A stretch of 64,000 nt of DNA from Phoronis australis (lineage: Eukaryota; Animalia; Phoronida): assembly GCA_002633005.1 (NCBI GenBank), contig NMRA01000462.1, positions 165,594 through 229,593 of the forward strand, read 5' to 3'. Shown one piece after another: positions 1,449-25,087 of the stretch; the stretch's first letter is position 1; each line of letters opens with the position of its first letter. Made by a program: the position numbers and the translations under genes. A model generated the notes under the pieces. The model saw only the letters and a program-made list of their open reading frames with translations. It did not search any database and was not told the origin of the DNA.

Positions 1449-3406
1449 CTTTTTAAAATGATGACTCGTGTAAAGTGGGATGAACTTCTCCTGTGTCTCT
1501 ACACGTCTATAGGGGGATAACTCCAGACTTATGTGAAAAATGACTAATGTTTTCCACAGTATGTAGGCCTATTTGAAGGTAAAAAGGTATTTTTCATAAC
1601 ATTGAATGTTTTCTCGTGTGCCACCCATTTAGTGGAAGTACTCCGATATTCAACCAGGCAGCAACTTTCGCATCATTGACTGGTTACCTCAGCTTTGTGA
1701 AAGGTTATTTTATTTACAAATACCCAAAATGTGCCATTCACCAGGCTCTAAATAGTGTTCACTCTACCTCAAGCCAATGACTATCATATCATGATTTGGG
1801 CTGAGATACTGTTTTTGAACTTTTCATGTGAGATGCACCTGTTCTTTTATGAGCTTAAAGAGTCGTATGTTTAGAACATCAAACATTGTCATATTGTATT
1901 AACCAATTAATGTCTTAGTTTTTATGAACGGAACTGGTGTATCTGATAATGAAACGTCGCCAATTATGAGCTCTGTAGAATGTGATTTTCTGTCAGATTT
2001 GCAGGAAATATTTTTCTGCGATTTTGTATAGACAATGTGTGTTCAGCCACGTCTGATTTGTGTTACGTGTAAAATTGTTATCCAATGGTTTGTGGTTAGC
2101 AGTCTTGGGTTTTTAAGTGTTTATACTAGAGTAGACTATTATTTGACTTATGAATCATGGTGATGGTTAGAGTGAGCATTTATAGTGTCGCTACCTGTCA
2201 CTCGGTTGAGGCAAAAATTAATGAATGAAATTCTCATAGACTTTATATACATATATATACATTTATATTATTATATTTGCTCTTGAAGTTTTGTTAAAAA
2301 TCCGACTAGATTTATTATGTGCAGTCTTAGGCTCAATGGTGTCCTTGTGATCTGGGTTTTAGCTACGGAATGGACAACAATGAAATACAAAGTAAATATT
2401 AATGTATGAATTCCAGGTCTGCGTTTGCTCGTTATCAACTGAAGGACGTACTAGCTAAATTAAGATTGTAAGCATTGTTGGATTTTTAACCAAACATGTT
2501 TGAATGAGAAAGTGCTAACAAAATTAAAAAGTTTGTGCATTTCTGTTATCTTCAGCTTTTGCAATTGCACTTTTGAAATACATAATTATGTTTACTATAA
2601 GTATGTACTATTTAGAAATTACTTGATTTTGTTATACAGGTTCCTGTTTTGACAAGGGACTTTCAGCCTTTCTTGGTGACGTTGTAAGTCTGGATTGACA
2701 CGTCAAACATTTAGCCACTAATCTGTATACAACTTTGAATCGAGACATCAGAAAATTCTCACATTTTCAGTTTTAATTTTTTTCAACAAATACATCAATT
2801 TCTAAATGACAAAATTGTCTTGGACAAAAGCAGGTTATGGCTTTTCTAGAGACACTGATTAAATTTTCTCCCATTATTGTTAGAAAATGCAAGGACATGC
2901 AGGTTTCAGGACTTTTGTACCCGCATCTAACGTGAGTCTCATAGTTCTATTCGATATGTCACATACAAAAAATTCGGTTCAGTTTGAATTTTAACCTTCA
3001 CACGCCTGAAACTCCAGTCCAGCAAATTTTACTCTCATATGAAAGCGTGCAAAATGTGGAAAAATCCAGTGTCCTGCAGAACATGAAAGCCATAAAGTGC
3101 ATGACTACTGTATTCTACACATTACGTTTTAGGACACAAGTATTATCGACTTTATTTTTCTTGCTAGTATGTTCTTGGGACAACGATTGTATACACTGGC
3201 ACCTGCTGCCAACAGGAACTCGACACTCACTAGGTGTCGCAAGTGAAGCCAGGGACCTTACCAAAGAAATGCCTTCATTCAGACAAATCATGTGGGTCCA
3301 TTATCACACAAACTCTGCCATAGTGATGAACTGCTTTCTGCTCTCAGCAGCGCCACCTGGTAAATATCGTATGAAGTCATTGAAGAGAAAGAAACATTTA
3401 CTTATA

Positions 3407-3482
3407 GGGTTCCTGCATTTAAAGAACCAGATTTATCCACTGAATAACGGATATCAAACTGGTTCTCAAAATCTGGGACCCC
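3407..3482. repeat. ~75-bp hairpin mini-repeat; further copies near 8991-9068 and 11797-11863
   Basis: Shared sequence gggttc..gcattt..agaaccag...ccactgaataa.gg..atcaaactggttctcaaaat..ggga.ccc with inverted termini. Confidence 0.55.
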
Positions 3483-5024
3483 AACAGTGAAATGGTGACA
3501 ATTGTTGATTTACATTAAATTAATTTCTAACCTTTGGCTTGGTACTTTCTTACTTCGTCACAGTTCCTTGAACCTAGTTGAGATTTTGATGGGTTTGTTT
3601 TCACAAAAAGTATTGAACTCTCCTAAAGAAATGGTATTAAATGGTAAAAGATAGATGTATAAACAATTTTTTTTCAATTTAAAATTTATTATACAACAGC
3701 AAGATTAAGATAGGATGATCCAAGAAATAACCACATTCAGACATTTACAACTACCAACACCTAGAATTACACAAGCATAACTTTTATGGCACATTTTTCT
3801 GTTAAACCTAAGCTACTAATTTGATAAACATACAGTCTTCAAATACAATGCATAATAATTGTGAACCAAAGCTATGTTTCATATATGTTATACGTCGACC
3901 AATGCTGCCATTCTGCCTCGTATTGCAGCTAGCGTTGGGCCAACAGTCTAGATATTGAAATTTCATGAAACGGAGCTCTGACCTTCATATCAAAACACCA
4001 ATTAAAGCTTCTACAACCCGCCTTCTGTCAAAAGAATGTTAACTTTTAACTTAGGCCACATGCCATTGTAAGACTGGTATTGACTTGTTCCTTACTTTAG
4101 ATTAAAGGTGATTTCTGGGCTTTACTAAAACTGGTTGCTTGTTTTTAATGGTGACCAGGCTCAATAACTCTGTTAGTTAGTCTAGAGTGGGTTCAGTTTT
4201 TGTGTCAAGCCTGTTCTGCAGCCTACAGTACCCACCACAAATACTCCTACCAAATGAACAGGAATTCCCCACCATAACCACTGAACACAAACAGCCAGTC
4301 ATTACCATTGAGAACATTATTATAATTCACCATGAGATTAGCTAGAATGACAAGATCACGATGCAAAACTGTATTTGGTGAGTACTGTAAAAATCACTTC
4401 TCACATATGTATGCATGGAACAAGCTGAGACCAGTTTAATAGCAGAGAGTGGTCTGAGTGGAAAATCTAATTTGATGACAAAAGCTGGGTTTATAGCAGT
4501 TTTAAGACAGAAATATGTAAAAACACAAAGTCTATATTGTTGATGATAAAAATGGCAAGGTGAACAATGGACTAGAATAAAAATTACTAAATAAGCCAAT
4601 TTTTGAACTAATTTGTAACTAGCAAGCTTGTGTCATGGCACAGTAATTCGATGAGAAACTCTGTAACGTTGTTTTGTGCAGTCGGTTTTCATAAGTTGTC
4701 ATAATAGAAAACATGAGGTGGTTGATTAACACACAAATTTGTTCCGTACGCTCTACATTTTGAAAATGTATTTGAAGTTGTTTTCATTATATCTAATGGA
4801 AACTTTGCGTTAGTGCCACTATACCTTCAGTTGATTTGCATCCCATAGTACTGTATACAAGTGATAGATCCATCCATAGAACTCTCCTCTTTCATGGGCA
4901 AAATACATTGCAGGACTGACCTACTTATCAAAATGTCAGACACACTCAGCACCGATATTTGACCTTTCAGCCAACTTCATAGCAGATTGCGTTATTTTTT
5001 GCCTAATACAGCACATCATATAAC

Positions 5025-6274
5025 TCAACAACAGAATACCTTCAATAAACCTTCGTAGACCTCAACATCATGTGACGAAACAGTTTCCTGATCCGGTATT
5101 GGCGTATATTCACCGTCAATGTTAAGAACTCGATCCAGAGTTGTCAGCTCGTACCCCTCCTCCGTGAGAACTCGCACAGTGAATTGCTGCACATTTGGAA
5201 TGATTTTGATGTTCTCAGTACTAGCTGTTTCATCAAGATTATACATAAGACTGAAGTTCTTGACCATGTTCAGTCTATTAAATGTTCCATTCAGCGTTAA
5301 TATAATCACATTCCCAGAGTTCTCTGATGGCATCATGATGTAATTAACGAAGCGTCCTCGGTAAACTTTCCAAACGTCATCTTCTTGGTCAGTCGTACTC
5401 ATTGCCACATCCATGGGATCTGTTGCAGTGGTTACGTCTACGGCATTGACAGTCTCTCCGTCATGTACCCCTGCAGAAGTCGAGCCGTCCTGAATACCTT
5501 GCGATGTGATGGCGGAACTACTGCCATCAAAAGTTGCTGTGGAACTAGCTATGTTCGAGTTAGTAACATTCTGTGTCGCTGTAGCACTGGTGTAGTCGCT
5601 CGTTGCCCTAGTCGTAGTCGTGACGCTTGTCATCGTGGTGCCGTCCGCAGCACTTGTGTCTATCGCCGAGGTTGTGACCTCTGATGAAGCACCTTCAGAT
5701 GTAAGCATGCTACTTGCCTCTTCTGACGAGCCAGTGGTTTCCGTGGTAACCATGGAAGTCTTGGTCACAGTAGTCACTGCAGTGGCTGAAGTAGCAGTTG
5801 TCTCGGTCGGCGTTGTATACGATGGTGACAGCGTATACCCACTTTCATTTGTGATGCCAAGCGGCCTTGCACTCACATCAGGGGTGGATACATCTGAGTC
5901 TGGAATCTCTCTGTAAGTCACACTTTTCTTAGTCTTCGTCACAGCATCAGGGGGTGCCACTACATCCGTATCAGGTGCATCCTTAGACTTAACACGCACT
6001 CTAATCTCTGCGGGATATGAGCGTATCCCACCGAATGCCTTCAGCATGCAATATAGGTAACGAATGCGGCCCATTTGTCTGTTGTTCTCGGCATAGTAAA
6101 TTGCATCAGAGATCAACCCCTGAGCGACCAACAACATGGAGTAGCCAAGGAACGTCTCCCCTTGGTTGACAGTTGCAAGGTTCCAGGGTCCCTGGTTGCC
6201 AAGTATGATGTAAAGGGCTGCACTAGTGACATCTTTAGTATTGTAGAACCCAAGCGGAAGACCGTTTCCAGTGC
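5025..6274 (-). CDS. Ceramide kinase-like (DAGK/SPHK/CERK family), coding exon 3 of 3
   Basis: Acceptor cttgtag at 6276-6275; phase 1 gives GAG|TGNG. Contains LISDAI, GRIRY, WKVYRGRF and NIDGE motifs and ends KVFCC*. Includes a ~200-aa Ser/Thr-rich insert. Confidence 0.88.
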
Positions 6275-6809
6275 CTACAAGCATTGAAGAACAAGATCTC
6301 AATGCAGAGTGGATCACACAGGTTATAGTATTAAACTAATTCTAGATTTATTCCCATCATAAAAAGCATGACTTTCTATCAGGCCAAAAAGCATAATTCT
6401 GGTCTGTTTTTTTTTCAAAATCAAGTCGGTGGAATGATATTTTCTTAGTTGCTCACTTTTTCAACAAAGAAGATCCATCAGAGACTAGACTGATTTTTAG
6501 TCTTGCAAAGAACTGACAGCTCCTTTTTGCTCAAGACCATGCTCGGCAAATAAGCTGACACGCTGTGACAAGACAAAATGTAGAGTCTTGTATTAAGCAA
6601 TAAACAATTGCCCATTCTTGTCAAGCCCAGACATCACACACATTTTGCCCAAAGAACAATTTGACACCTATTTCATAATGATAAGTTGTCCAAATCAAGT
6701 TGTTTTGACGGAAGGCAGGTTTATAAAAGCTTAACTATCTTTGCCATGTTTTCCATGACTGGCAACCATGAGTACTAGCTACACAGTTCTTAAGACATTT
6801 TCCGCTCAC

Positions 6810-7080
6810 CTGCGCCAATCATTCCTAAGGGTACCTGCATCGCTGGAAGTGGTTCAGGAGGGTATGACACTGCCCAATTAGTCACACGCTTGGTATATTC
6901 CAGAACCCCCGCAACACACTCGTTGAATGTCCCATCACCGCCGACGGCAACGACACCGTCAACATTAGAGAGGTCATGGGATTTCAGGAATTCTGTCGCG
7001 TGCTTAGGTTGCTCCGTGACCATGACCTCAGTCTTTATGCCGACCAGGGCGAAGAGCGGCGCCACCTTCCTGCCGTATAC
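6810..7080 (-). CDS. Ceramide kinase-like, coding exon 2 of 3
   Basis: Acceptor cccatag and donor G|gtgagc. Reads VYGRKVAPLFALVGIKTEVMVTEQPKHA...DGVVAVGGDGTFNECVAG...LGMIGA, matching CERK IYERKVAPLF and the GGDG ATP-binding motif. Confidence 0.9.
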
Positions 7081-7839
7081 CTATGGGAGTTAGTGGATGA
7101 TGGATTAGAAAAACTGTTTAACAAGGCCGCATCCATTGTCCAAATCAAATTAAAATGTATCTGAGTCTTATCAAAAATACAGACAGGTTCCATGAAATTG
7201 GTCACATCAAAACAGTACAGTTCCAATGGTAAGAGAATACAGGATATAAAAGAATGAAGCAAACGGGCTGTATGGAGTCACATGAAGTTTCTACTGTTGT
7301 TAAAGCAAATAAATTTTGCTACTAAAATTGACCTTTCCTTGCAGTAAAATCCAATTTTGGGAAAACGTATCGCTGAATTTGATGGTGTTCACATTTCAAG
7401 ACTTTTAACATGTGCATCACAAATTTCTCAAAAATAAAAACATTCAGATTTAGTTGAATGACTTTGCATGTGTACCTTCGGATAGTTAAATGCATTTTTA
7501 CAGCCTCTGAGCACCATACCATGTTCTGTAGTGGCAGTCTTCATCAGGATGTTGATCTTTGCTAAAGGTTCAACGTTCAATTGTACAGAGACTGGGGAAA
7601 GTCATGCATCAAACTACTAAAACATTGCCAATGCAATATCATTTAACCAAATCTTGTCTATAAGAATGAGTGCAACCAGTACAGACCAATGTGGAAAAGT
7701 AATATGCGTATTCTGTAGTTACATTACCAAGAGCAGAACATGGAAATGGTAGAGAATCAATTTTGGTGAAATTAGGTTTTTGTGGAAAAAAGAATTAATT
7801 TGTGGATTTGTGAGACCAGCTACCTAATCATAAGGCTCT

Positions 7840-8350
7840 GAAACAAACTTATGGACAAGTTGGTGCATTCAGCCAAATATCCACAAAAAATAGAATTTAA
7901 CACAAAAAGTGAACATTTTTGAAAGCACTGACAGTGTGACTGTGCTATTTGATTTTTGAATCAATACAAATCTGCTACTGATTGGGTCACATGACCATGT
8001 TTTTAGAAAAATTTAGCTAAAAAGAAAGTTGCAATCAAAGCAAAACAACGGTATCAATAACACAGCCAAATTTCTTTTGATATAAATGTTCAAGATGAAA
8101 TCTCAAAGTTGACAGTTACACTTTTTTCAGTATCATTCAATTTTTGTTGCACGCAGCTCTTTCCAAAAAATCATAAAAGTCTTATTTCTTGATTGTCCCA
8201 CATGCAAAAGTGGAGCATTCTAAAAACAATTGCTAACGGCCTATTAGAGAACAGTAATAGCTAAAAGTCTCACATATGACTCTCATCAGTCATTTCTCAT
8301 TTCTGAGACACGAAGTTCCAAAGTTTGGCAAGTTTAAACATTTTGCTAAG
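7840..8350. repeat. Dispersed repeat in kinase intron 1; related copy at ~41240-41740
   Basis: Shared blocks such as ggtcac(a/g)tgaccatgt..tttag.aaaa and ttctgaga.a.ga.gttcc.aagtttg. Confidence 0.55.
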
Positions 8351-8370
8351 GTCTGACATAACCTTAATAC

Positions 8371-8742
8371 CTCCACTGCCTTCCTAGCGCCACTCTCTGG
8401 GTTAATAATCACTACCAAGTTCCGCGGTCTTGCCAGACGGTTCAATGCAGAGCGCACGTTCTTCACCATGGCTTCCTGACTGGCCCTGTCCTCGCAATCC
8501 AAGGCAGTTTTCGAAACGGACAGCTTCCTCTTTTTGCGCCGTATGTGATAGACTACCAAGCATGAGTCATCATTATCCGCCTCCAACACTGCAATAATGT
8601 CGGATAACTCCAAAGTTCCCTCACAATCTTTCTTCTTACCCACAGGTGTCCATTTTAAGCGATTACCTTCAAAGGTCAAGGTGCCAGCAAGGTTGACTAC
8701 GTGGCCAACACCCTCGACAGTCTTCAACTTGGGCCCACACAT
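8371..8742 (-). CDS. Ceramide kinase-like, coding exon 1 of 3 (PH-like domain plus C1 motif); shares its exon with the BORCS7 terminal coding segment
   Basis: ATG at 8742 in context GAA ATG T. Reads MCGPKLKTVEG...LELSDIIAVLE...RPRNLVVIINPESGARKAVE, then donor gtatta. Phase 0 joins in frame to exon 2. Spliced ORF is 1893 nt, 630 aa. Confidence 0.85.
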
Positions 8743-8765
8743 TTCAATACAAGTCACGTGAAATT

Positions 8766-8829
8766 TCAATGCTTGGGATGATGAAGGATGTAGACTAGCT
8801 GGTTGTTAATTTCTGGAAGTTGTTCAACG
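8766..8829 (-). CDS. BORCS7: BORCS7 coding exon 5 of 5
   Basis: Acceptor ttttgttacag; phase 2 gives S-VEQLPEINNQLVYILHHPKH*, matching the BORCS7 C-terminus (human NVEQSSDLQDQLNHLLK). Confidence 0.85.
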
Positions 8830-10352
8830 CTGTAACAAAACACAACAAACAAAAGCGGTCACCGGATTCTTACTACTATCCCTAAAACACTTACAACACA
8901 CCAAATGAACACTAACCAACTGTCGTCACACCCAGAACCTGATCACGAAAGCACACTGACTATGACCAATTTTCGGTAACATTCTTTTACAGGGTTCTTG
9001 CATTTTGAGCACCAGTTTTCTCCACTGAATAATGGGCATCAAACTGGTTCTCAAAATCCGGGATCCCTGAAACTGACTACTGCACTATTACCAGCACAAG
9101 TATCCGAAGTAATAATTTTACAATTTTCTCGCATGACTAAGTTGCACTAAGAAAAATGATACCTTACAAAGAGGAGGACCCCGTCCCAAAACATTTGTTA
9201 CAAAGACTGTTGTTACTTTACATCATGGTTAGGACTTATCAGTAAAATACACGTCGTGTAAGCGAGCATGTGAGAGAGTGAGTGAGATGACTTTAAAATG
9301 AAATGTACTCGTTCAAATTAATAATTAGTAAAAAAACCCAAAGTGCATGACTTGTGTTTCGTGGAAAAGCTCCGCTCCAGTGATAAGGATCGACTACACC
9401 TGTTAAAGCACGACTTAATGAGTTCTGCACAATCACCCAAGGAAAGAGCAATCCAAAGATTCTCAACATTCATCACAGTACAGAGGCATGGAACGCAAAA
9501 GCTCATCAAAAATATCCGTTCAACAGATCCTAACATAAGCACCATCGCGCAACATCTACTACAGTCATTCACTTTCCCTTATGAGGGAATTTCAAGAAAA
9601 AATCACAAAATTCCCGATTTTTGAAATACGCGTGATCATGGAAAAACTCTGTGGTCACCACAGTTTCTAATAAACCTCCCACCTATGATAAATGTCTGCT
9701 AGCACTCACAGTAAATCTACAAACAGCTGACTGACAAGATGGATATTAACGGCAGATTATCATGTGTGATCACACTCCAAATCTGAGATTGACAGCACAT
9801 ATTGAGGCAAGCTAATGAAACGAGCGACTTTCTAAAAAGAATTTCGAGAGCATTTTAGAATATATTTGACTACTACAATACCTTTATAACTTAAACAGTT
9901 AGGATTTACATAAATTGCCTCTTAACCGAACTGTTTTGTTTACATCAAATGTCAAAAGTCACATTTTCCGCATTAGGGAGATGTGCTTTGCCTTGTAGGA
10001 GAAAAATCGACGAAGTGACGAGCAGCAGACATATTGTTTTTTGAAATTTGAAACTAAAAATTGACACTGACAGAAGTTCAAAATCTTTATGAACAAACCA
10101 CAAAAATACCTGGTGAGAGGGTTTAATTCTATTTCAGTGGCAAACAACCAGTTTGAATAATGCAATTTAATCTGCGTTTTGCGTTCCAGGCCTCTTTAAC
10201 ATTGCTAGTCATTAGTAACATATAAAACGTCCAGTTTTAACTTATTCTGACATACACAGGTCATACCCTATTTGTGTCAGTTGGTTTTCACGAGCACATC
10301 CTTTCCAATTCCATATTTCATAAACAAGAGCAACGCGGAGCGTTGAAATGCG

Positions 10353-10440
10353 CNCGCCGCCCGGACGGACGGACGGACGGACGGACGGACAGAGATGACG
10401 GCATAATGCGTCCACATATAAATATGTGGGCGCATAAAAA
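10353..10440 (-). mobile_element. End of a Helentron/HINE-like non-autonomous element with (GGAC)n microsatellite
   Basis: Reverse complement of the terminus at 45617: hairpin ATGCGCCCACATATTTATATGTGGACGCAT plus (GTCC)n. An N lies at 10354. Confidence 0.6.
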
Positions 10441-10640
10441 TGAGTTAACATGGCAGGTGCATGTAATGGAAGATCATAAAAACCTTACAAATTTTATCAT
10501 TTTGAATCACCCATAACATATTAACAAGGAACTGCCTGACAACAGAGAATGCCAAATATCTGAATCGGATTTTGTATAACACATTCAAAACAAGACACAC
10601 AAATTAATTGTACATTATAACGAATGGAATGAACACTAAC

Positions 10641-10661
10641 CTCTTTTGAATTGCTTGCGAC
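10641..10661 (-). CDS. BORCS7: BORCS7 coding exon 4 of 5 (21-nt microexon)
   Basis: gttttgcag|G TCG CAA GCA ATT CAA AAG AG|gttagt gives (Q)SQAIQK(S), matching human QQEAIQKN. Confidence 0.85.
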
Positions 10662-11259
10662 CTGCAAAACAAAAAATATTATGAAGAAAGACTTTTATGC
10701 ACAAGCCTGAAACGATTTCTCCCCCCCATCGCTGAAATGAAGACACAAGCCGTGTGCTTTGCCAGACCCCGTTTGACAATAGGACATTACTTATCAGTGG
10801 AAACCTGGCATTAATTAATTGGACAAGGTGTAATCAAAACACTGAAATAAAATAAAATTTCCAGGTTTCCTTTAATTCTACAAACTTCGCACTTGACTGA
10901 CTGAAAGTTCTTGCAAATATGATATTCAATAGCAGCATTCAGAACACTGACGGTCACATGGCACAGATGATCTCTGCTGCCACCTGGCGATGAGTGAAAG
11001 TACTTCTACATTACAGTGGGTGGTATAAGCTCATGCTTCACCGGCTATAGAGCAATAAGAATCAACGGCCCCAAATGAAAAGTCAACAAAAAACCATTGC
11101 TTAAAGAAAAAATATTAGGCCAGTAATAAACCTGGACCAGCCATTTTCAACCAGTCTGTATGGCTATGTCAATTGATCTATTGTATTTGGGCCTTCCCCC
11201 TAGCAGACTGGTTATCAATGTGGCAACTAACATGCCATTGAATCAACAAACTCACTTAC

Positions 11260-11303
11260 TGATAGTGGAGATGAGATGAAGCAAGGCCCATACGTTTCAT
11301 AGT
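11260..11303 (-). CDS. BORCS7: BORCS7 coding exon 3 of 5
   Basis: tttatttcag|TMKRMGLASSHLHY-CA|gtaagt, matching human SLRKMAIITTHLQYQ. Confidence 0.88.
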
Positions 11304-12452
11304 CTGAAATAAAGAAAAAAAACCATATAGACATTCCAGTGGCCTGTTTCAAAAAGCTACTTTTAATTCACTTTCATGAAACAGTTTTAAAAAGACTTTT
11401 GACAGAAAATGTGGTTTTATGGTCCCACTGAACATTTGCTGAAAAAAGTTTAGCCAAGTAATTATTAGTGCATCACAGTCTAAAAATAAGTTATAGAAAT
11501 TATTTCTGTCAGCAACTAGCCGTTGTGCGTATATTCTCAGAGACTTGCATTTCTGCTGAAGTGAGATTTACTTATTTTTTCAAAAATAGTTGTGTGGAGC
11601 TTAAGAACAAATTTCAGTCTTTTACGACTTAAAAGTCTTAGGTCACTTTTGATGAAACAGAGCCCAGACAACGTGACAAATTTGTATGACTTTTCCACAT
11701 GCAGCCCACTTGCTATTTCCATAGTGCCTGCTTATCACCTGGGAAATCTTGTCATTTAGACACAAGATAAAAGGCAATGATCAGATATGATGTGCCCACA
11801 TTTTGAGAACCAGTTTGATTCCCATTTATTTAGAGTAGAAAGATGATTCTGAAAATGTGGGCACATTATATCGGACTATTTCCGCATATCCCACTTGGGA
11901 TGGGAAGAACAACTTGGCTTTGGTTGGTCAAGACTTGGCAGGGTGAAAGGTCAGGCCCAGAGCCAGTATTTTCAGCAAGTTGAAGTTCAGACAACGCAAT
12001 CATTCCTCTATTTTTTGTTCTAGTTGTAGCCAATAATGAGATAACTATCACACCAGCTCTGACTAAAACTTGTTAAAGATTCAGGGTAAGCAAATAAGTC
12101 AGCAAACATCAGAAATTTTAAAGTTTTAATGCCACACTATTTGCTTGCCACAATGGAAAACTTTAAACTGATTTTATTATATAAAATTACAAATTAAACC
12201 AAAGATTTTGCATGACAGGTACTTATCTGCTTAAAAATTCATGATTCAACCTTATTTGTCATATGAGTAAAAAACTGTCACGACTGTAAGACATTTTCAT
12301 TTTCCAACCCATAGAAATGTATAGAGTTCATTGATTGTTCCTAGGGCTAGACGCGTTACAAAAAATATTCTTGAATATGGTGACTTTAAACTAAGTCTTG
12401 AACTTTAAGACAAATCTAGAATTCCTGCGAAACAAACGCAATGAAAGAGTAC

Positions 12453-12515
12453 CGTGAGAGAGTTTTCCACTGATGTCTCTTGAAATGCAAAGTTTTTGGC
12501 AGCTTGTGCTAACAG
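12453..12515 (-). CDS. BORCS7: BORCS7 coding exon 2 of 5
   Basis: ttttttccag|LLAQAAKNFAFQETSVENSLT|gtactc, matching human LLGQAARNMVLQEDAILHSED. Confidence 0.9.
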
Positions 12516-13361
12516 CTGGAAAAAAGTAAATAAATACAAGGTATTATCAAGAGATTTAGCAACAACGAACCTGATGGGGACCCTTCTAAAAAGTTTGTGG
12601 TAATCGAAATTTATGGTAACCAAATCAAACTGGATACAGTATAGTTGGTTTGGAACTATTGGAATGGGATGTTACATATAACTAGGTAATTTGTAAAGTA
12701 ATTTTTCACTTACTTTGTGCACAAAAATGACTGCCAAATTTGTTATTTTTCCATTTTTCAAAGGCTGATAAATCATGAAAACTTCACCAAATGTTGTTTT
12801 ATGACATCTACACAGAACAAACCCTGTTGGCAACACACTAAAATGTTCTTAATCCGTACTTTTGTGAAGGAATTTGGACAAAACTGAATTTCACTTGTCG
12901 GCCATTTTTTATGCTAAATAAGTGAAGGATTACCAAACACAGCTCGACTGTACACCTCAAATATCAAAAAAGTACAAGAAGTGCCATTTAAGTAGCTGAT
13001 TGCCTTCCCAATGGTGGCACAAAAACTCAGTTCAAGATGGGTGTGTGGTGGTACTCAAAATATTATCCCTCTGACCTACGGAGGAGTCAGGGAGTTTGAA
13101 CCCTTCCTCAAGAGGCAGGACCAAAAAGGCAAGCAATATGGCACCACCAATTCTGAATCAGTAAACCTGTCACTAAATATATAGATCTGCACCAGTTCCA
13201 CAAAGGGTGCTTCCCATACATTACCGATGATGTTGGTTCGTTAATTTAAAATCCAGAATAAAAATCCTGCATTATTTTTTTAGCCATCATTGTTACTCTT
13301 GAGTTAAACCAACTTGCAGATACAATTTGCCAATGAATGGTGACGGCAGATACAGGTTTAC

Positions 13362-13481
13362 CTCACTGGATCTTGATTCCCTCAAAACCTGTCTAGTCAG
13401 AGAAGTTATCTCCAAAATATTTGCTGTAGTTTTCTCAGACAGCCTAGCCTTGGTTTCAGAATTCCAATTGGAGGAAGACAT
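13362..13481 (-). CDS. BORCS7: BORCS7 (BLOC-1-related complex subunit 7) coding exon 1 of 5; spliced CDS 312 nt, 103 aa
   Basis: MSSSNWNSETKARLSEKTTANILEITSLTRQVLRESRSSE|gtaaac matches human VKGLLTEKV...ALTKQVLKGSRSSE. An upstream acceptor ttttcag at 13521-13520 implies a further 5'UTR exon. Confidence 0.9.
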
Positions 13482-14319
13482 GCCAACCTGGGTTTCAGAA
13501 AGCCGAACCTCTTCAACGACTGAAAAGTAACGACAGACTTCATACACAGCTCTCTGGAGAGAAACACTTGGCATTATAACTGAATAAAAAATTTGAGTGT
13601 GGCAATGGTCACTGGACCTAGCCACCTGTACGCGAGCCCCGGCACTTATAAACAGTGATGGACTAAAAATCTCTTAAGTCCCTAAGCTGCAAAATGTCTG
13701 GGGCTCTAGTCATTTAAGCTGACAACAATCAACAGCACTTTTCCTCGTTTTTCAGATTTTTAAATTGAGAGAGTCCAGAAATTTCGTGAATTGAAGCAAA
13801 CCTAATTTCTGTTACCGGTAATCTATTCTCTAATTGACTATTCTGATCTCTGGCTGTATTTCATTATAACTACAAGAGTTTATGGCAAGGCAATTCTCCT
13901 CAAAACACGATTCAAATGATGGCTTCTATGACTACGTGAAAAGGGGCTATCAAACCGTGTTGGTTTGAATGGTACTGGGTGGACAAAAGTACATGATTCT
14001 GCAATAAAAATACTAATCTATCCCATGACGAGTCCCACTAATGCTGATAACATCCAACTCGAAATTCGTCAATCACAAGATCCTGCAGTGGGTTTAGGAG
14101 ATATAGCTGTGGGCGCAAAACAAAACAAAACTGCCACTAGGAGGTGCCACAATATTAGAAGTCGTAGAAAAACCATCGTCAGCCGTCCACTACATAGTAA
14201 GAACATACATGCCAATTTCCACAATCATCCTTTCTTTGAGTGGTTTGGTTGATAGAGGGGTGGAAGCAAAAAACAGACTCTAAAACTGTAAAAATGGAGG
14301 TGCAAACTATGTCGAATCC

Positions 14320-14595
14320 ATCTGAAAACGGGAGTATAACGTCATCTCACTAATAGGTGACAATATATTAAATTTTATGAAAATCCATTCAGGACTTTTA
14401 AAGATACAGAGGTAAGCGTAAAAAACTAAAATTGCCACTAGGGGGCACATCGGTAGTCGGATATGTCCGAAAGTTCGTGCATGCCGTCCCATCCACGGAA
14501 GAAACACATGTGCAAATTTCATGAACATACGTCAAGGCGTTTTGGAGATAGAGCAGTTGACAGTGGACGCCGGACGGAGATGACGGCCTAAAAAA
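14320..14595 (-). mobile_element. Helentron/HINE-like element fragment, same family as 45617
   Basis: Reverse complement matches 45660-45966 (cccctagtggcaattttagttttttacgcttac...attttcat.aaattt). Confidence 0.6.
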
Positions 14596-15240
14596 CACTT
14601 CTTCTTCACGACATTTGTTGAACGTCGTTTGAAATTTTTATTGGAAGTGAGCTCATCAGATAAACGCAGACAATGAGAGAGTTGGACTACTAGTATGTAA
14701 ACATTGGTTTGCCAACTTTCGCCCCTTGCTATCGGTGTCAAACTCAGTGATAACAACTTTGCTGTATACCGACTAGCCAATCAGTGAAATCGGTATACTC
14801 GATCATCCCACACCGCGGGTACGTAACATGTTGGAGGAAACTCATGTGCTCCACTAATTATATTTGACCAGTACCTTAAGTTAATTTTGCATTACGACTA
14901 GAGCAACATAGTCATCTGAAAAGAGGACACAATCGAAGCCTTTGGTTCATGGGAGCTTGTTTCTATTTGATAGAGTTCATAATTTCTAGTGTACACCATT
15001 ATAAGTCAAAGACGGCAGTGCGTACCGCATAGATGTGTCAGAAGTCTGGTGAGGTTTGCAATCTCGTCACAATGTGACACGCATCTCACTCACTGTGATT
15101 GCCTGTTGCTTGATCTTGAATAGGGGCCATTTGTGATTCATTGCCGCTTAACGGATCAAGCAGCTCATATGCGCATCACGATTGCAAACCTTGCCCGACT
15201 TCTGGCGCATCCATGTTACTATGTAGTATATTGCCTATTA

Positions 15241-15294
15241 GGCAATGACCATCGCCTCTGTTGGCCCGGGCCAACAGAGGCAGTGGTCACTGCC
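15241..15294. mobile_element. 54-bp minimal MITE consisting of two abutting TIRs of the GGCAATGACC family
   Basis: ta|GGCAATGACCATCGCCTCTGTTGGCCC-GGGCCAACAGAGGCAGTGGTCACTGCC|ta; same termini as 16326-17230. Confidence 0.75.
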
Positions 15295-15483
15295 TAATTG
15301 CCTCATATGTAGTAGTGGCATACGCACTACTTACTCCCTTGTTTACTTATTTTTGGTTCAACCGTTCTACTTATGGTGTACGAGATGTTCTAACCTGCTG
15401 AAAGATAGAATTAATTATAAGTTCCCATTCAGTGTTCGCCGCGCATCCGACTTCGAGCCACAGCCAAGCCACCGACAACTCAC

Positions 15484-15755
15484 TGACAGTGACTGACACT
15501 GTCGAACTTCTTCGACTCGAAGTGTCGAAATCTGAATTTGAAGTTGAGCCTGACTTGATGTCCCAGGCCAGATTGCTTCTAAAGTAGATTTACCCTAACC
15601 CAAACATACATCAAACTAAAAGCAAGCTCTGGTCATATATTTATCTTTGCAAGTAGAGCAGAGATAGATAACGCCCAGCCAATGTCGAGCCACACGACCT
15701 TGAGGCTTGAATAGTTGACAAACAAGATTTTGCTCTGTCCATAGATGGCGTAAGT
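15484..15755. promoter_or_regulatory. Candidate bidirectional promoter and first exons of BORCS7 (-) and ATP5MK (+)
   Basis: Minus-strand donor GTGAGT at 15483, plus-strand donor GTAAGT at 15750, a CCAAT near 15679 and local CpG enrichment. Both genes need an upstream 5'UTR exon. This is inference only. Confidence 0.3.
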
Positions 15756-16325
15756 AGGACTTTTTGATGTTTTTTTTACAAATAATGAATAGAGAATGAA
15801 TATAAACTGTGAACAGCAAAATTATGTAAAAAAGTAACATCTTTAATGAAAAACGGTGATAACATAGTGTTGTTTGGCACACTTTGAAAAAATAAAAATG
15901 ACCAATGAGCTTTCAGACAATTCTTCTCTGCGGCCTCGCACTTCTACAGGAGAGTGGCTTACGATTTGTGGTAAGAACAGATTCCGAAAGTTCATATTTT
16001 CACAGTTTCGATCTACGACGTGTTGTTGCTTGAAATCTGAAGTCCAGAAACTGTCGTAATACGATGGAAGATGGAGCGTTGTGGCTACCAAAAGCGTAAA
16101 ATGCGCATCTAAAACTTAGCTAGTCCACAATTCAAAGTCTCCGCTAGCCAGCCAGTTACTGCTGTATGAAGACTGTCGTCAAAATACAGCTAGGTCTCAC
16201 TGCGTGTATTTCTTCCGTAGACAACGAAATTGCATGCAGCCAGTGTAGTTCTGCTCGTCACTGCGCTGTGAAACTTTTATCAACATGTAAAGCTAAAGAC
16301 CGGACGGTGTGCATGCAAAATCTTA

Positions 16326-17230
16326 GGCAATGACCATCGCCTCTGTTGGCCCGAAGCAGAGGCGATGTAGAGGCTATAGGCGCTCTGTACGCCGGAAGCT
16401 TTTCGGCGAATTTTGCCTCGCATCGACTAAACCATCAAAGTCACGTTGTTCTAAATACCTTTTGCGCATAGAGGAACACCTTAGGAGGTTGTCGATGTGT
16501 TTAATTCCTTCCAACTCGAACAAATACTCCCGTTATGAAACTTTTTCTTCGAGCAGTCCCTATTTCAGTTCCCAAAATCGTGAAATCAACTTTTTCATTT
16601 TTTTAACCAGGCCGAAGGTCAGAAGTTGCGGACCTACCGGCGAACTTTGAAAGCTGAAGTTCCCGCCCTTCGCGTACGTGCTGCCGGGAACCAGCCGTGC
16701 ATTTGCCGTGTTGTTAAACATTAAAATGTCAAATATGTGCAAAAAGACTATTAAATGTCATATCAACAGCATTTATTTTTATCAAATACAAACAATGATT
16801 CATTGAAATACAATCAGTTTCAAGTAACGCCAATTAAAGACAAGTATAAGTGGTGGCATTTTGGAAACGAACATTTGACTGACAAGACCGCAATGGCTCA
16901 CCTTTGGCCTATTTAAAGATTGAGGTCATGAATTGGAGCGTGCGCAGTATAAAAATGGTGAGTTCACGATTTTGGGAACTGAAATAGAGACTGCTCGAAG
17001 AAAAAGTTTCATAACGGGAGTATTTGTTCGAGTTGGAAGGAATTAAACACATCGGCAACCTCCTAAGGTGTTCCTCTATGCGCAAAAGGTATTTAGAACA
17101 ACGTGACTTTGATGGTTTAGTCGGTGCGAGGCAAAATTCGCCGAAAAGCTTCCGGCGTACAGAGCGCCTATAGCCTCTACATCGCCTCTGCTTCGGCCAG
17201 TTCGGGCCAACAGAGGCGATGGTCATTGCC
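16326..17230. mobile_element. 905-bp non-autonomous TIR element with ~260-bp inverted arms
   Basis: ta|GGCAATGACC...GGTCATTGCC|ta. The arms (16326-~16590 and ~16960-17230) are near-identical, producing the mirror ORFs 16330+ and 16909-. Arm segments recur at ~19480, ~20790 and ~34975. Confidence 0.85.
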
Positions 17231-17369
17231 TAGCAAAATCTGGGAGTCAACCGACACCTTCCCCTTTACAGCCGTTTAACTTTAAGTGAAAAACAATGCA
17301 ATAAACGTCATTTTCTTGTGTAACTCTCTGCCTTTTCTAACAATGATAAGTATTTTGTCGTTTTGAAAA

Positions 17370-17805
17370 CAGTATGCTTGTGTCACACGCACGCGCCATT
17401 TCCTAAATTTTTGTGACATCTCTCGGGAGATGATGATAGCTTGGCAGCAACAAAATTTCCTCTGAAATTCGATTTTTCGGTACCAAAATTCTAAAAACTT
17501 TTAATGAAGTGAAACCAGTTCTGATAATTTGTTGTGACGTATACGCAACCTTGTGAAAGAACAACAGTTGATTGAAGAATCGGCGAAAAAAGAAACTGGT
17601 CAATAGGTGACACAAAAAATTTCATGGTGCCGAAAGCCGTCACTAAAGATCGCTCCACAACTTTAGCAGCTGAATAACGGTAGAACGCCATTTTTGCCAA
17701 CACCGTTAAATAATTTAATTTACTCAAGGAAGGCTGTAGTTTTTAATGACACTAATTTTGTGTCAGATTTTATATTACCACTTTTTTACCCGCATCGGTG
17801 CAAAG
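17370..17805 (+). repeat. Dispersed repeat; diverged copy at ~39722-40152
   Basis: Shared cttgtg.cacacgcac.cgcc.ttt.cctaaa...gaaaccagttctgataatttgttgtg...ttttaccc.catcggtgcaaag. Confidence 0.7.
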
Positions 17806-18519
17806 CTGCCTTGGCCAGAGCAGATCGACGCTTTTATTAAGGTCAAATTGACCAAGACCCGTCTATCCCCTGCCCGAGTTACGTTCCCAAGGGTTCAAAT
17901 TCGATCCTATGGTGACCTCGGGTACGCATCTAGCTCTGCTGGCAAGAATCCGCAAAAAAGCAGAAGTTGTTTTTGAGGTCCAGATTGGTATGTGAAAAGG
18001 GTATCACTTCAAACAATTTCGTGGAAAAATGGTCGAATGGTCACAATTTAAAAAAAATTAGAAAAGGTGAAATGCTCCTCCATATTATGTCAGGACAACT
18101 TTAGCGGGAATCTCGCGTGGGCAAACCATTCAGAATAGATGATGCTGTTTCATTCATTAACTACGGTTGTCGCTGTAATCTTGTGTTGAGCTAGCATGGC
18201 GGCGTCAACGGGAAAATAGTGTGAACAAAAATTTGACGATAAAATACGGTGGAAAAAACGTGGTAGGGGGATAAATTTATATATTTTTGGAAATATAACG
18301 TTGCGATAAATCTTATGATACCAAAATCAAGTGTGTAGGTCAATGTCGTCATATTGTAAACAATTACCTAGTACGCCACCAGAGTTGGTGCTACCTCTCT
18401 GCTCCCTTCCCATGTTAAGTCTTAAGACATCATTGCACTTCATGCACGTTGACAAAAATTGTAAGAATTGAGGCTTATACTACACTACAGGTGCTCCTAA
18501 TCACCTAATGGTACTGTCT

Positions 18520-21130
18520 CACTACAGTATTGGATCTATTTAGAAGGTGCCAGGTGTGTGGCGAGGCAGTCACACGGCGGGATGTAAGTGGTCTGGGTGC
18601 TCAGGTCACCATCCAGTGAGAACAGCATAGGCATTCCATAATTAAGGTCGGCATAACAGTGCACACCGTGCATTTGCACCAAGACATCCCACCACGTCTG
18701 CCCTCATTCTCTGCCTCATCCCTCTCAACAGCTGTATGTGGGTATTCTGCCTCACTATACTCGTGCTCAAACTTTATCTACCCACTCACTGTTCGTGAAC
18801 AAATTCCTCGTCTCCACTCCTATGAACAATGTCTCTGTCACTCGCGTCACTTTGTCTGTGATATGGGTCGCCAACTCCAGCTACTACAAACTAAACAATC
18901 TCTAAATCCAACGTAATTGAGTTCTCTAACAACCTGGCTTGTCGTAAAGTACTCGTCAATGGGAAATGGTGACAACAATTTTAGGAAACCAGCACGAAAA
19001 CAACAGTGGAACAGATCCTCACAGTAAACTCGAACGCAGAAACAAACTGGCAGGAAATACTTGACCCCTAAACGTCACATCCGGAGTAGGGCATGACTAA
19101 TTAATAAAATTACTGGAAGCTGTATTTAACTGTAACATGTGTCTGACTCTGGGATAATCAACGGAGGGTATTTTGTTACTAAAAATGACATGAAAAAAGG
19201 TTGCCTTCTCCTTTGAAAATTGGTAATGGGAGACAAAAATCTCTTCATGTGAAGAATTACGCTTAATCGCAGGAATGAAATTCACAAAGTTCTGATTCGC
19301 TTTGACTGACTGGTCACCTCTTTTCAGCTCTTGCTGAGCAATAGACATGTCTCTGTCTGTCCTGCCTCCTCTCGGCGTGTAGCAGACCGCTGACTTACCC
19401 ATAACCCTCTGTACATGTCCGTTTGACCACGAGCTCACGTACTATTATGGCATTCAATCTTCAATTTCGGTGACAGAACAAAGGACTGTTTGAAAAAAGT
19501 GTGGGTTGTGGGAGTATTTGTTCCAGTTGGAATGATATAAAAACTCCAACTGCCTCTAAAAGTACGCATTAATGTAACTTTGATGGGTGAGCTTGGGTTA
19601 AGCGTAATTTTCAGAAAATCTTGCAGCTTACAGGCTTGATTATGATGTGCCATTGTCTAACTGAACAACTGAAGGCAAAAACTGTTAGCGACAGTAATAT
19701 ACAGGGGCGGATCCAGGATTTTGGGTAAGGGGGACCAGGGCAGAGTATTAGCCAGTATTTTGCCCGTCAGACATTCGCACCCCTGAACTGCCAAATTGAA
19801 TCTGGGATAATTTTAGGGGGGGGGNCACTACAGTATTGGATCTATTTAGAAGGTGCCAGGTGTGTGGCGAGGCAGTCACACGGCGGGATGTAAGTGGTCT
19901 GGGTGCTCAGGTCACCATCCAGTGGGAACAGCATAGGCATTCCATAATTAAGGTCGGCATAACAGTGCACACGGTGCATTTGCACCAAGACGTCCCACCA
20001 TGTCTGCCCTCATTCTGTGCCTCATCCCTCTCAACAGCTGTATGTGCGTATTCTGCCTCACTATACTCGTGCTCAAACTTTATCTACCCACTCACTGTTT
20101 GTGAACAAATTCCTCGTCTCCACTCCTATGAACAATGTCTCTGTCACTCGCGTCACTTTGTCTGTGATATGGGTCGCCAACTCCAGCTATTACAAACTAA
20201 ACAATCTCTAAATCCAACGTAATTGAGTTCTCTAACAACCTGGCTTGTCGTAAAATACTCGTCAATGGGAAATGGTGACAACAATTTTAGGAAACCAGCA
20301 CGAAAACAACAGTGGAACAGATCCTCACAGTAAACTCGAACGCAGAAACAAACTGGCAGGACATACTTGACCCCCAAACGTCACATCCGGAGTAGGACAT
20401 GACTAATTAATAAAATTACTAGAAGCTGTATTTAACTGTATCATGTGTCTGACTCTGGGATAATCAATGAAGGGTATTTTGTTACTAAAAATGACATGAA
20501 AAAAGGTTGCCTTCTCCTTTGACAATTGGTAATGGGAGACAAAAATCTCTTCATGTGAAGAATTACGCTTAATTGCAGGAATGAAATTCACAAAGTTCTG
20601 ATTCGCTTTGACTGACTGGTCACCTCTTTTCAGCTCTTGCTGAGCAATAGACAGGTCTCCGTCTGTCCTGCCTCCTCTCGGCGTGTAGCAGACCGCTGAC
20701 TTACCCATAACCCTCTGTACATGTCCATTTGACCACGAGCTCACGTACTATTATGGCATTCAATCTTCAATTTCGGTGACAGAACAAAGGACTGTTTGAA
20801 AAAAGTTTGGATTGTGGGAGTATTTGTTCTAGTTGGAATGATATAAAAACTCCAACTGCCTCTAAAAGTACGCAGTAATGTAACTTTGATGGGTGAGCTT
20901 GGGTTAAGCTTAATTTTCAGAAAATCTTGCAGCTTACAGGCTTGATTAGGATGTGCCATTGTCTAACTGAACAACTGAAGGCAAAAACTGTTAGCGACAG
21001 TAATATACAGGGGCGGATCCAGGATTTTGGGTAAGGGGGACCAGGGCAGAGTATTATCCAGTATTTTGCCCGTCAGACATTCGCACCCCTGAACTGCCAA
21101 ATTGAATCTGGGATAATTTTAGGGGGGGGG
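18520..21130 (+). repeat. Near-identical 1.3-kb tandem duplication (18520-19824 / 19826-21130) joined by a single N; probable uncollapsed alleles
   Basis: Constant offset of 1306 with scattered substitutions. The break falls in a poly-G run. Confidence 0.8.
18528..18771. mobile_element. Internally deleted Kolobok-like transposon remnant: transposase N-terminal fragment (+) abutting a convergent KolX/P2X7-ballast-like fragment (-); duplicated at 19834-20077
   Basis: Plus strand after actacag: LDLFRRCQVCGEAVTRRDVSGLGAQVTIQW. Minus strand 18771-18622: FEHEYSEAE...EGRRGGMSWCKCTVCTVMPTLIMECLCC. Confidence 0.6.
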
Positions 21131-22765: not shown

Positions 22766-24227
22766 CAGAAGTTAAGTTTAGATCACAGAATGCCGAGTTG
22801 TACAGAGGATTATATTAGATGGACACGCACTATTAGCAAACCATTGTGTGATATGACTGACCAGTTGACCAACAGTTTGACTGACGTTTCGGTTAAATGA
22901 CTGTGAAGGTCTTACTTAGGACAGTTTAAATGAGTGAAAAGCTACACAGAGAACGTGTTTGGTTGTAAGGCGTGTTGTCAGTGTGTTTACAGTTGGATAT
23001 GATGTATAGGACAATTGGCCTGTGCTGTGGTAATACTTGATCGTGTTACTTATAGTGTGCGGTTGTTTGGTGTGAGAGACCTCAGTGATTAATAAGAGAA
23101 ATTAACAGTTGTTAAGTTATTTGTTTTCAGATATATTTCTTTAAATATCACAACAAAGTTCAGTGAAACTGAAATTTTTTTATAAAATTCAAAACAGAGA
23201 CATAACAACACAAATTTGGGTTATTTTGAGAAGAGATATTAAATTGTATTTGGAATTGAAGGTAATTTCTGTCCAGTTCTGACTAAGACTTCATAAATGA
23301 TTCTGACTATGTCCTGTATACCAAGTTGAAACATTTAGAATAACCCTAATATTTACTTTCAAAAGACAACTGCGAATTATGTGAATTCGACACTATCGGT
23401 ATGAATGTTAATTTGGCTTTGTGAGTATTCACCAAATTTATCCAGTGACTGGTGGCCATGATCAATATTTATGGTGGATAGCAATCAGTAATATTAAGTT
23501 CAAATAACTTAACTTCGTTCAGTAACACTAACAACAATTGGACAGACTGAATGCAATAAATAACATGACTACATATATACATACACTCGCCTTCTGTCAG
23601 CGTCAAAATCATTAACTCATATAGCACTTTCAATTGTAATGGACTTTCACAAAGCGCTGCGTAGGCGTGTACTGGAAAGGGAACGGAGTTGGCACATGAG
23701 AAAGGACAGAGAGCAGGGTAGGACAAAGAACATTCAAGGTATTTTAGTAATTATACTAAAAACTTAATACGGTATATACAGTGCCTCCAAAAATGTTATC
23801 ACAATTCAAATGACAGTCTTGTAACGGTGCTGATTTCGGAATAAGATAAGTGCTTAAGAGGCATTATCTGAGAAAACCTGCAAAATTGCAAAATGTTGGC
23901 GGAGGCACTTTCATCAATTAAGTTGATACTTTGCACACCAATTTGTACTCACATATGAATAACTAAATCACGTCTGTTTTTTATCTGGAGTCATTCTATA
24001 AAAAAAAATAATAAATACCTTCCGTCGTGGTTTTTTCACACAGGACAAGAATGTCCAAAAAGACAAAAAGAATGCCAACACTCACAGAGCTGGAAGCCAG
24101 TTTGTGACTTTGAATGATCATAATTAGTGGAATTGAAGCCATTGCTGTGCTTGGGAATTGATTCCGTTGAGCATCTGTGTGAATTTGTATTTCATCTCGA
24201 CTTTTTGTTGACGCACTAAAATTGACC

Positions 24228-24756
24228 NNNNNNNNNNNNNNNNNNNNNNNNNNNNNNNNNNNNNNNNNNNNNNNNNNNNNNNNNNNNNNNNNNNNNNNNN
24301 NNNNNNNNNNNNNNNNNNNNNNNNNNNNNNNNNNNNNNNNNNNNNNNNNNNNNNNNNNNNNNNNNNNNNNNNNNNNNNNNNNNNNNNNNNNNNNNNNNNN
24401 NNNNNNNNNNNNNNNNNNNNNNNNNNNNNNNNNNNNNNNNNNNNNNNNNNNNNNNNNNNNNNNNNNNNNNNNNNNNNNNNNNNNNNNNNNNNNNNNNNNN
24501 NNNNNNNNNNNNNNNNNNNNNNNNNNNNNNNNNNNNNNNNNNNNNNNNNNNNNNNNNNNNNNNNNNNNNNNNNNNNNNNNNNNNNNNNNNNNNNNNNNNN
24601 NNNNNNNNNNNNNNNNNNNNNNNNNNNNNNNNNNNNNNNNNNNNNNNNNNNNNNNNNNNNNNNNNNNNNNNNNNNNNNNNNNNNNNNNNNNNNNNNNNNN
24701 NNNNNNNNNNNNNNNNNNNNNNNNNNNNNNNNNNNNNNNNNNNNNNNNNNNNNNNN
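24228..24756. other. Assembly gap (N run)
   Basis: Run of Ns. Confidence 0.99.
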
Positions 24757-25087
24757 AAGTTAATCGATGACCCGTTACAATAATTTGTTACTGGTATCAT
24801 AATTCACATTGCTAAACCGCGGTCTCTGAGGCCGTCGTTGCACTCAATGTTATCATCGATCTTAATCTAAAAGGTCGGGGATTCGCGTTTCCTATTAGCA
24901 CAGGGCGGTAATCACCAATCGTCAAAAGTAGGGGATGGGCGGTTAACCGAGCAGTGGGCGGTTAATTGGAAATCTTCAAAAATAGCAGGGGGGCGGTTAA
25001 CCGAGCAGTGGGCGGTTAAATCGAAATTCACCTAAAGTAGGGGGTGGGCGGTTAACTGAGCATGGGCGTTAACCCGAACGATTACGG
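24757..25087 (+). mobile_element. Right end of a second copy of the CCGTAAACG TIR element (family of 55428-57205)
   Basis: Colinear with ~56880-57205 and ends TTAACCCGAACGATTACGG|TA. Confidence 0.85.

Follow-up and report, generated by a model that had tools for sequence, protein, structure and literature searches.

BORCS7 and a divergent PH-domain lipid kinase frame on what appears to be one spliced message of Phoronis australis

We describe a locus of the phoronid Phoronis australis at which the gene of BORCS7, a lysosome-positioning subunit of BORC, and the gene of a putative lipid kinase share one exon, separated by 23 nucleotides (nt). It lies on the minus strand of a 64,000-nt stretch of DNA (GenBank assembly GCA_002633005.1, contig NMRA01000462.1, positions 165,594 to 229,593), which we call the window and whose own numbering is used throughout. 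The exons of both genes form one spliced chain, both reading frames are intact and RNA read depth is level over the two genes; as judged from short reads, one bicistronic mRNA appears to be the main transcript. We favour, as reasonably probable, a single minus-strand mRNA with complete BORCS7 and PH-domain kinase frames, from which the kinase is likely made by ribosomes that pass over the BORCS7 start while scanning.

Exon chain and joint message

All seven coding exons (13481-13362, 12515-12453, 11303-11260, 10661-10641, 8829-8371, 7080-6810 and 6274-5025) follow the GT-AG rule. Exon 1 (13362-13519) carries a 38-nt leader, the BORCS7 ATG at 13481 (G at -3, T at +4) and codons 1-40; exon 2 (12453-12515), exon 3 (11260-11303), in which both in-frame ATGs are found (M63 at 11300 and M66 at 11291), and the 21-nt exon 4 (10641-10661) lead into the shared exon 5 (8371-8829). 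The latter, as sequence and RNA reads both indicate, contains BORCS7 codons 83-103 with their TGA (8768-8766), the spacer (8743-8765) and kinase codons 1-124, which start at ATG 8742 (segment 8372-8742). From this ATG the second open reading frame (ORF2), in frame +2 relative to the 103-residue BORCS7 frame (ORF1), runs for 630 residues through exon 6 (6810-7080) and the coding part of exon 7 (5025-6274), with its stop at 5027-5025. A preliminary description of the stretch, made from the sequence alone, had given this anatomy, and its coordinates, splice sites, frame lengths, spacer, stop and start all hold when the sequence is re-read, as does its statement that the spacer is free of AG and of a poly(A) signal. 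The spacer has no ATG either, no AATAAA occurs on the minus strand between the BORCS7 stop and 6352, and read-through of that stop cannot fuse the two frames, since translation would meet another in-frame stop 3 codons later.

The RNA data comprised a contig set (X1, 6% of words) and three raw RNA runs of one study (X2-X4), matched by species label. Of each raw run, some 18-19% was compared with positions 4000-15500, with reads of 151 nt and depth bins of 384 nt, and the joints, indels, variants and loose ends reported here are those among the matches listed. Exonic reads are stranded as expected for minus-strand RNA. Joint 13362/12515 was crossed by 8, 20 and 22 reads in X2, X3 and X4 respectively (50 in sum), 12453/11303 by 11, 20 and 11 (42), 10641/8829, which enters the shared exon, by 12, 10 and 29 (51), 8371/7080 by 11, 4 and 6 (21) and 6810/6274 by 6, 14 and 26 (46); the last three are the junctions through which the preliminary description had proposed to follow the transcript. 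Joint 11260/10661 has no entry of its own and is supported by 14 X3 reads that run from exon 5 through the 21-nt exon to exon 3.

Depth scaled to exon length is 71 in exon 1, 71 and 58 in the two halves of exon 5, and 62, 59, 60 and 84 over the kinase, with 3-5 in four intron bins, which gives a kinase to BORCS7 ratio of 0.91. The lack of a drop after the BORCS7 stop argues against any major BORCS7-only mRNA, and the lack of a rise against any major kinase-only mRNA. Taking this ratio together with the 51 reads at 10641/8829, compared to 42-50 at the joints within BORCS7, we see the bicistronic mRNA as the apparent main transcript, and the earlier proposal of one transcription unit giving one spliced mRNA with both frames is thus supported by junction reads and level depth. 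Two complete separate frames on one processed mRNA make the locus dicistronic in the FlyBase sense, by short reads; as to the obligate class of dicistrons, no depth step was seen in this one study and among its listed joints.

The description had the transcript begin at 13481, and, while the junctions downstream of this point are supported, the start lies further upstream, in an untranslated first exon (15395-15466, donor 15395) that is joined by GT-AG splicing at 15395/13519 in an X1 contig and in X2, X3 and X4 (9, 6 and 2 reads, 17 in sum). This exon measures at least 72 nt, the shorter read side at the joint reaching up to 72 nt and the 5' end being unmapped. It includes two upstream open reading frames (uORFs) of 5 codons each, at 15429-15446 and, with G at +4, at 15411-15428, whose stops are placed 72 and 54 nt, respectively, 5' of the BORCS7 ATG on the spliced mRNA. 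At the other end the 3' untranslated region (UTR; 3685-5024) is transcribed at least to 4000 and probably extends to the first downstream AATAAA (3690-3685). In the first intron, just 5' of exon 1, positions 13600-13983 had a depth of 2.9 in X4 alone, the run with 2 reads at 15395/13519, which is possibly a second start site or a retained intron.

It might be argued that the bicistronic mRNA mainly gives BORCS7, and that the kinase is supplied, perhaps in other tissues, by a minor mRNA holding the kinase frame only, started at a promoter in intron 4 or at another first exon, or provided with a trans-spliced leader at 8829. A precedent is the alternative promoter of the fly BORCS7 partner (PMC4528330), the evidence presented here covers one study's tissues and the joints listed, and the exon-4 donor is repeated exactly over 14 nt at 8917-8904, where it could end an alternative exon. 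However, there is no surplus of kinase reads at a ratio of 0.91, and the depth of exon 5 is explained by the exon-4 junction to the same extent as ordinary junctions explain the depth of their exons, and we hold this source of the kinase to be unlikely. An intron-4 promoter or a spliced leader (SL) attached at 8830 had also been put forward in the description; with no depth step and with the exon-4 junction dominant, neither appears to be the main route. The same cis junction, a 23-nt spacer devoid of AG and AATAAA, and the absence of a depth drop set the locus apart from SL trans-spliced operons.

The repeat behind the donor copy deserves a separate remark. The 14 bases at the exon-4 donor (10628-10641, minus strand) have an exact copy at 8904-8917, 75-88 nt 5' of the acceptor of exon 5, and the window contains no other copy with up to 2 mismatches. 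By chance about 3e-5 copies of this word would be expected in the intron, a figure that has to be read with the caution due to a post hoc find. The copy may serve as the donor of an alternative exon, or may be a scar left where a rearrangement brought the two genes together.

The joints bear equally on a fused product. A cryptic AG at 8795-8796, 35 nt into exon 5, would connect BORCS7 residues 1-82 in frame to the kinase (730 residues), and skipping of exon 5 would give proteins of 546-574 residues deprived of the PH domain. Both joins preserve the frame, but the pyrimidine fraction before the cryptic AG is only 0.31, as against 0.69-0.88 at the seven used acceptors, and neither use of this AG nor another corresponding joint was found among the joints listed, which makes alternative splicing into a BORCS7-kinase fusion a very improbable origin of the kinase.

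The two proteins and constraint on the kinase frame

For ORF1, exon 1 alone matches the Pfam family BORCS7 (PF16088; E 2e-6, 28.2 bits with a cut-off of 27.3), and exon 2 aligns to model positions 47-65 (E 0.012), collinear with exon 1. The 20-residue tail in exon 5 had no Pfam match when searched alone, therefore this part of BORCS7 is assigned by junction and frame. A homolog search with exon 1 gave no matches among 7 candidates, and a PDB sequence search with the same exon returned nothing useful. The tail assignment matters, because truncation of mammalian BORCS7 at Q88 abolishes its incorporation into the complex (PMC12846789).

For ORF2, the catalytic core with GGDG in exon 6 matches Pfam DAGK_cat (E 6e-14), and a search with this exon found 64 relatives among 485 candidates (best 52 bits), the named ones being ceramide kinase or DAGKc and the others unnamed. 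The best whole-protein BLAST match is a goby ceramide kinase (135 bits, 33% identity over residues 62-304). Exon 5 contributes the NPESG motif, and residues 1-123 are predicted to adopt a PH fold from residue 10 (mean predicted local distance difference test score, pLDDT, 70.7), and PH domains are the top PDB matches of this model in Foldseek (E 3e-4); with the fold beginning at residue 10, ATG 8742 fits as the native start. Exon 7 supplies GTGNG, the remainder of the core, a Ser/Thr-rich, mucin-like insert of about 180 residues (about residues 330-510, positions about 5390-5930) and a divergent C-terminal part with DGE. The structure prediction for exon 7 had a pLDDT of 35 and no usable fold, a PDB sequence search with its C-terminal part brought nothing useful, and the C-terminal 120 residues align weakly (E 0.12), while Atlas points, at 0.85, to YegS/DAGK accessory domains; all Atlas matches were below 0.9 and are leads only.

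The description called this protein CERK-like with intact motifs. Indeed, NPESG, GGDG, GTGNG and DGE are present, and the N-terminal PH domain followed by a DAGK catalytic domain with GGDG is the arrangement of ceramide kinases; two further ceramide kinase motifs are, however, missing. Where 58 of the 64 relatives have G[ST]T[DN] after the GxIxAG strand, ORF2 reads GTGN, and the CxxxCxxC cysteine motif, likewise present in 58 of 64, gives way to the Ser/Thr insert, beyond which the C-terminal part is barely alignable. Ceramide kinase activity needs the CxxxCxxC motif. With two motifs of these ceramide kinase matches lacking, we do not assign ceramide or another sphingolipid as the substrate, and classify ORF2 as a predicted lipid kinase, a divergent PH-DAGK member of the CERK/SPHK superfamily, rather than as a ceramide kinase. 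It shares the PH fold and DAGK_cat domain with both families; weak PDB matches to SPHK1 occur in exons 6 and 7, an Atlas lead to sphingosine kinase stands at 0.86, and no sphingosine kinases were among the 64 relatives.

Such divergence may raise the suspicion that the kinase gene is dead or decaying, and that ORF2 is an untranslated part of the 3' UTR of BORCS7. Apart from the two missing motifs and the low-complexity insert, no ortholog was found, either with the exon-5 kinase part (no matches among 477 candidates) or in a HMMER search of 1.84 billion entries. Three matches of the latter (P0065-P0067) were rejected, all being multi-stretch matches in repetitive proteins; one metagenome locus from 599 stretches was rejected as well, as a fortuitous match on a contig that is densely packed with genes and resembles those of prokaryotes or phages. 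A decayed gene would nevertheless hardly be expected to keep 630 uninterrupted codons across two spliced introns, a whole predicted PH fold, and both GGDG and DGE.

Polymorphism points the same way. X1 behaves as a second haplotype and, compared with the window, has 9 differences over 463 positions of the kinase core (exons 5-6), 16 over 382 of the Ser/Thr insert and 37 over 644 of two pieces of the 3' UTR; the core is less polymorphic than the UTR (Fisher P 0.002, excluding the piece 4807-5274, a mix of UTR and coding sequence). Two of the three coding variants listed are synonymous, and the sole coding indel listed is an in-frame 3-nt deletion of X1 within the insert. The kinase frame thus looks constrained, as far as its sequence can tell, and we see very little chance that it is a relic.

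Translation of the kinase

The distance from the BORCS7 ATG to the kinase ATG (G at -3, T at +4) is 335 nt on the mRNA, and M63 (A at -3) and M66 (G at +4), both in the BORCS7 frame, are the only ATGs between them, when 5.0-6.5 would be expected (P 0.04-0.12). The description had stressed that ORF1 has two in-frame ATGs and none out of frame. This is correct as a count, although it is only borderline unusual, as 2.3 out-of-frame ATGs are expected by codon shuffling (P0 0.07). We suggest that most ribosomes would initiate at the BORCS7 AUG, whose context is moderate, while some would bypass it, either by leaky scanning or by re-scanning after the two uORFs located 54-72 nt upstream. The bypassing ribosomes would encounter only M63 and M66 before the kinase AUG; starts at these codons would produce 41- or 38-codon frames with the same TGA, short enough for some ribosomes to resume, and the kinase would be a minor product.

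The description proposed instead that the kinase is made by reinitiation after the whole 103-codon BORCS7 frame on the same mRNA. The 23 nt between stop and start are near the 20-30 nt of viral reinitiation by termination upstream ribosome-binding sites (TURBS; PMC10275272), and the in-frame AUGs would be no hindrance to it. However, eIF3 is reported to be retained over 12 codons (half-length) to 60 codons, and cellular scanning reinitiation prefers about 40-140 nt (PMC10275272); a search of 3000-18000 gave no Rfam matches, and the cellular bicistrons that have been tested, fly stoned and Snapin and those of algae, use leaky scanning (PMC11892635). On the grounds of eIF3 retention and of these precedents we favour leaky or resumed scanning and consider full-length reinitiation a rather doubtful route.

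The BORCS7 stop lies 395 nt 5' of the next exon junction and two junctions follow it, yet depth stays level. Stops more than 50-55 nt upstream of a junction usually direct an mRNA to nonsense-mediated decay (NMD). It is plausible that translation of ORF2 may explain this level depth: ribosomes on the kinase frame would strip off the complexes at both downstream junctions, making it easier for the mRNA to avoid NMD.

Several observations weigh against the scanning reading or the message it relies on. The count of 21 reads at 8371/7080 is under half of that at other junctions and is unexplained; continuity on the same molecule is judged from overlapping reads of 151 nt and bins of 384 nt; the listed joints and loose ends leave room for minor isoforms; and all three raw-read runs come from one study. 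The third listed coding variant, Y621H, is non-synonymous. The depletion of AUGs is borderline, and for the given BORCS7 protein sequence synonymous changes allow no out-of-frame ATG at all, so that a synonymous shuffle expects 0 and is uninformative. The context of the kinase AUG is no better than that of BORCS7, and each intervening AUG has one favourable position, A at -3 for M63 and G at +4 for M66. In-frame AUGs are reported to suppress the second cistron (Wall 2005). Their reducing effect on second-cistron translation is also reported in PMC11892635.

Known two-gene messages and the surroundings of the locus

That animal bicistronic mRNAs are rare, as the description had it, is overstated. 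FlyBase has 159 dicistronic pairs, corresponding to 2.5% of gene models, and in the obligate ones the gap between stop and start ranges from -34 to 319 nt (PMC4528330). BORCS7 is among the pairs: CG18065, classed as 'di/polycistronic only', is followed 235 nt downstream by CG13430, which has its own promoter (PMC4528330 File S1), and the two correspond to BORCS7 and SP70 (PMC12799179). As in Phoronis, the fly BORCS7 is the upstream cistron, there annotated only on the two-gene transcript, and the partner is unrelated; the partner is a different one, however, the gap is 235 instead of 23 nt, and fly SP70 has a promoter of its own, whereas no sign of a kinase promoter was seen in our reads. Two further fly cases are Snapin, located with an 18-nt gap (PMC4528330 File S1) upstream of HemK2 (CG9960; bioRxiv 10.1101/2024.01.29.576963), and Muted, dicistronic with a 5-nt gap (PMC4528330 File S1). 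They too are small BORC/BLOC-1 subunits on two-gene messages with very short gaps; unlike them, each of the two frames described here spans several exons, with two junctions downstream of the first stop, and while the Snapin frame is described as poor in internal AUGs, BORCS7 here has two in frame. The same File S1 had no rows for the tentative gene identifiers CG32590, CG16708, CG11802 and CG10681.

In human, 14 bicistronic transcripts are well supported, and an example of such transcripts is STREMI-SLC35A4, with a conserved upstream protein of, as here, 103 residues and, encoded after it, an enzyme or transporter that is unrelated and has a separate origin (PMC13303939). Stress induction and both proteins have been demonstrated for that pair, whereas ours is known from RNA and sequence, and human downstream frames are often intronless retrocopies (PMC13303939). 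The kinase with its two spliced introns therefore does not conform to a bicistron born by retroposition ('gene symbiosis').

Another likeness is to human C10orf32, which we take to be BORCS7 and whose transcription also continues into a downstream enzyme gene, AS3MT; in contrast to it, the genes here share an exon and the joint message is apparently the main product. The human read-through is an NMD candidate that connects separate genes about 4 kb apart (PMC3285587). Neither a BORCS7-kinase pair, nor a 23-nt shared-exon layout, nor the recurrence of BORC/BLOC-1 genes was found in open-licence PMC and bioRxiv text; within these searches, the bicistronic class and BORCS7 as first cistron are already known from fly, and the kinase partner is new.

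The main interest of the locus, in our opinion, is that genes of BORC/BLOC-1 subunits recur in multi-gene messages with unrelated partners: BORCS7, Snapin and Muted in fly and BORCS7 here. This prompts the idea that some small subunits of complexes are prone to host a gene downstream of their own, and since small genes are over-represented among dicistrons anyway (PMC4528330), this pattern calls for a size-matched comparison. One may go further and speculate, with little confidence, that such genes have repeatedly and independently become first cistrons (fly BORCS7-SP70 and Snapin-HemK2 and the present pair, with human BORCS7-AS3MT representing an early stage), because shared scanning is tolerated by a subunit that is small, low-dose and AUG-poor, and that the uORFs here act as an ATF4-like stress switch to a new lipid-kinase subfamily. 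If so, stress would shift the output from a lysosome-positioning subunit to a lipid kinase, on a junction-laden message kept safe from NMD. In any case, two multi-exon genes, a stop of the kind that triggers NMD and a steady message make a compact test case for second-cistron translation and NMD escape. In practice, gene finders are likely to miss one of the genes or merge it with the other, and knocking down the message would affect both.

Some features of the surroundings may be added. Repeats of high copy number, where partial reads run into the hundreds to thousands, occupy 8999-9069, 10323-10440, 11766-11890 and 14077-14500; several of them have inverted arms, and the reads over the elements at 10323-10440 and 14000-14750 are mostly from a single strand. 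Upstream of the gene are an inverted duplicate pair (16327-16647 and 16912-17229) and a tandem one (19097-19441 and 20403-20747), whose segments look non-coding and have near-identical translations, and an assembly gap of about 530 N is found at about 24226-24760. Of 177 stop-to-stop frames of at least 65 residues in the window, the 155 outside 5076-13527 were scanned, and a single one had a Pfam match (E 5e-16), an allantoicase exon on the plus strand at 1188-1445, whose gene is convergent with the 3' end of the kinase.

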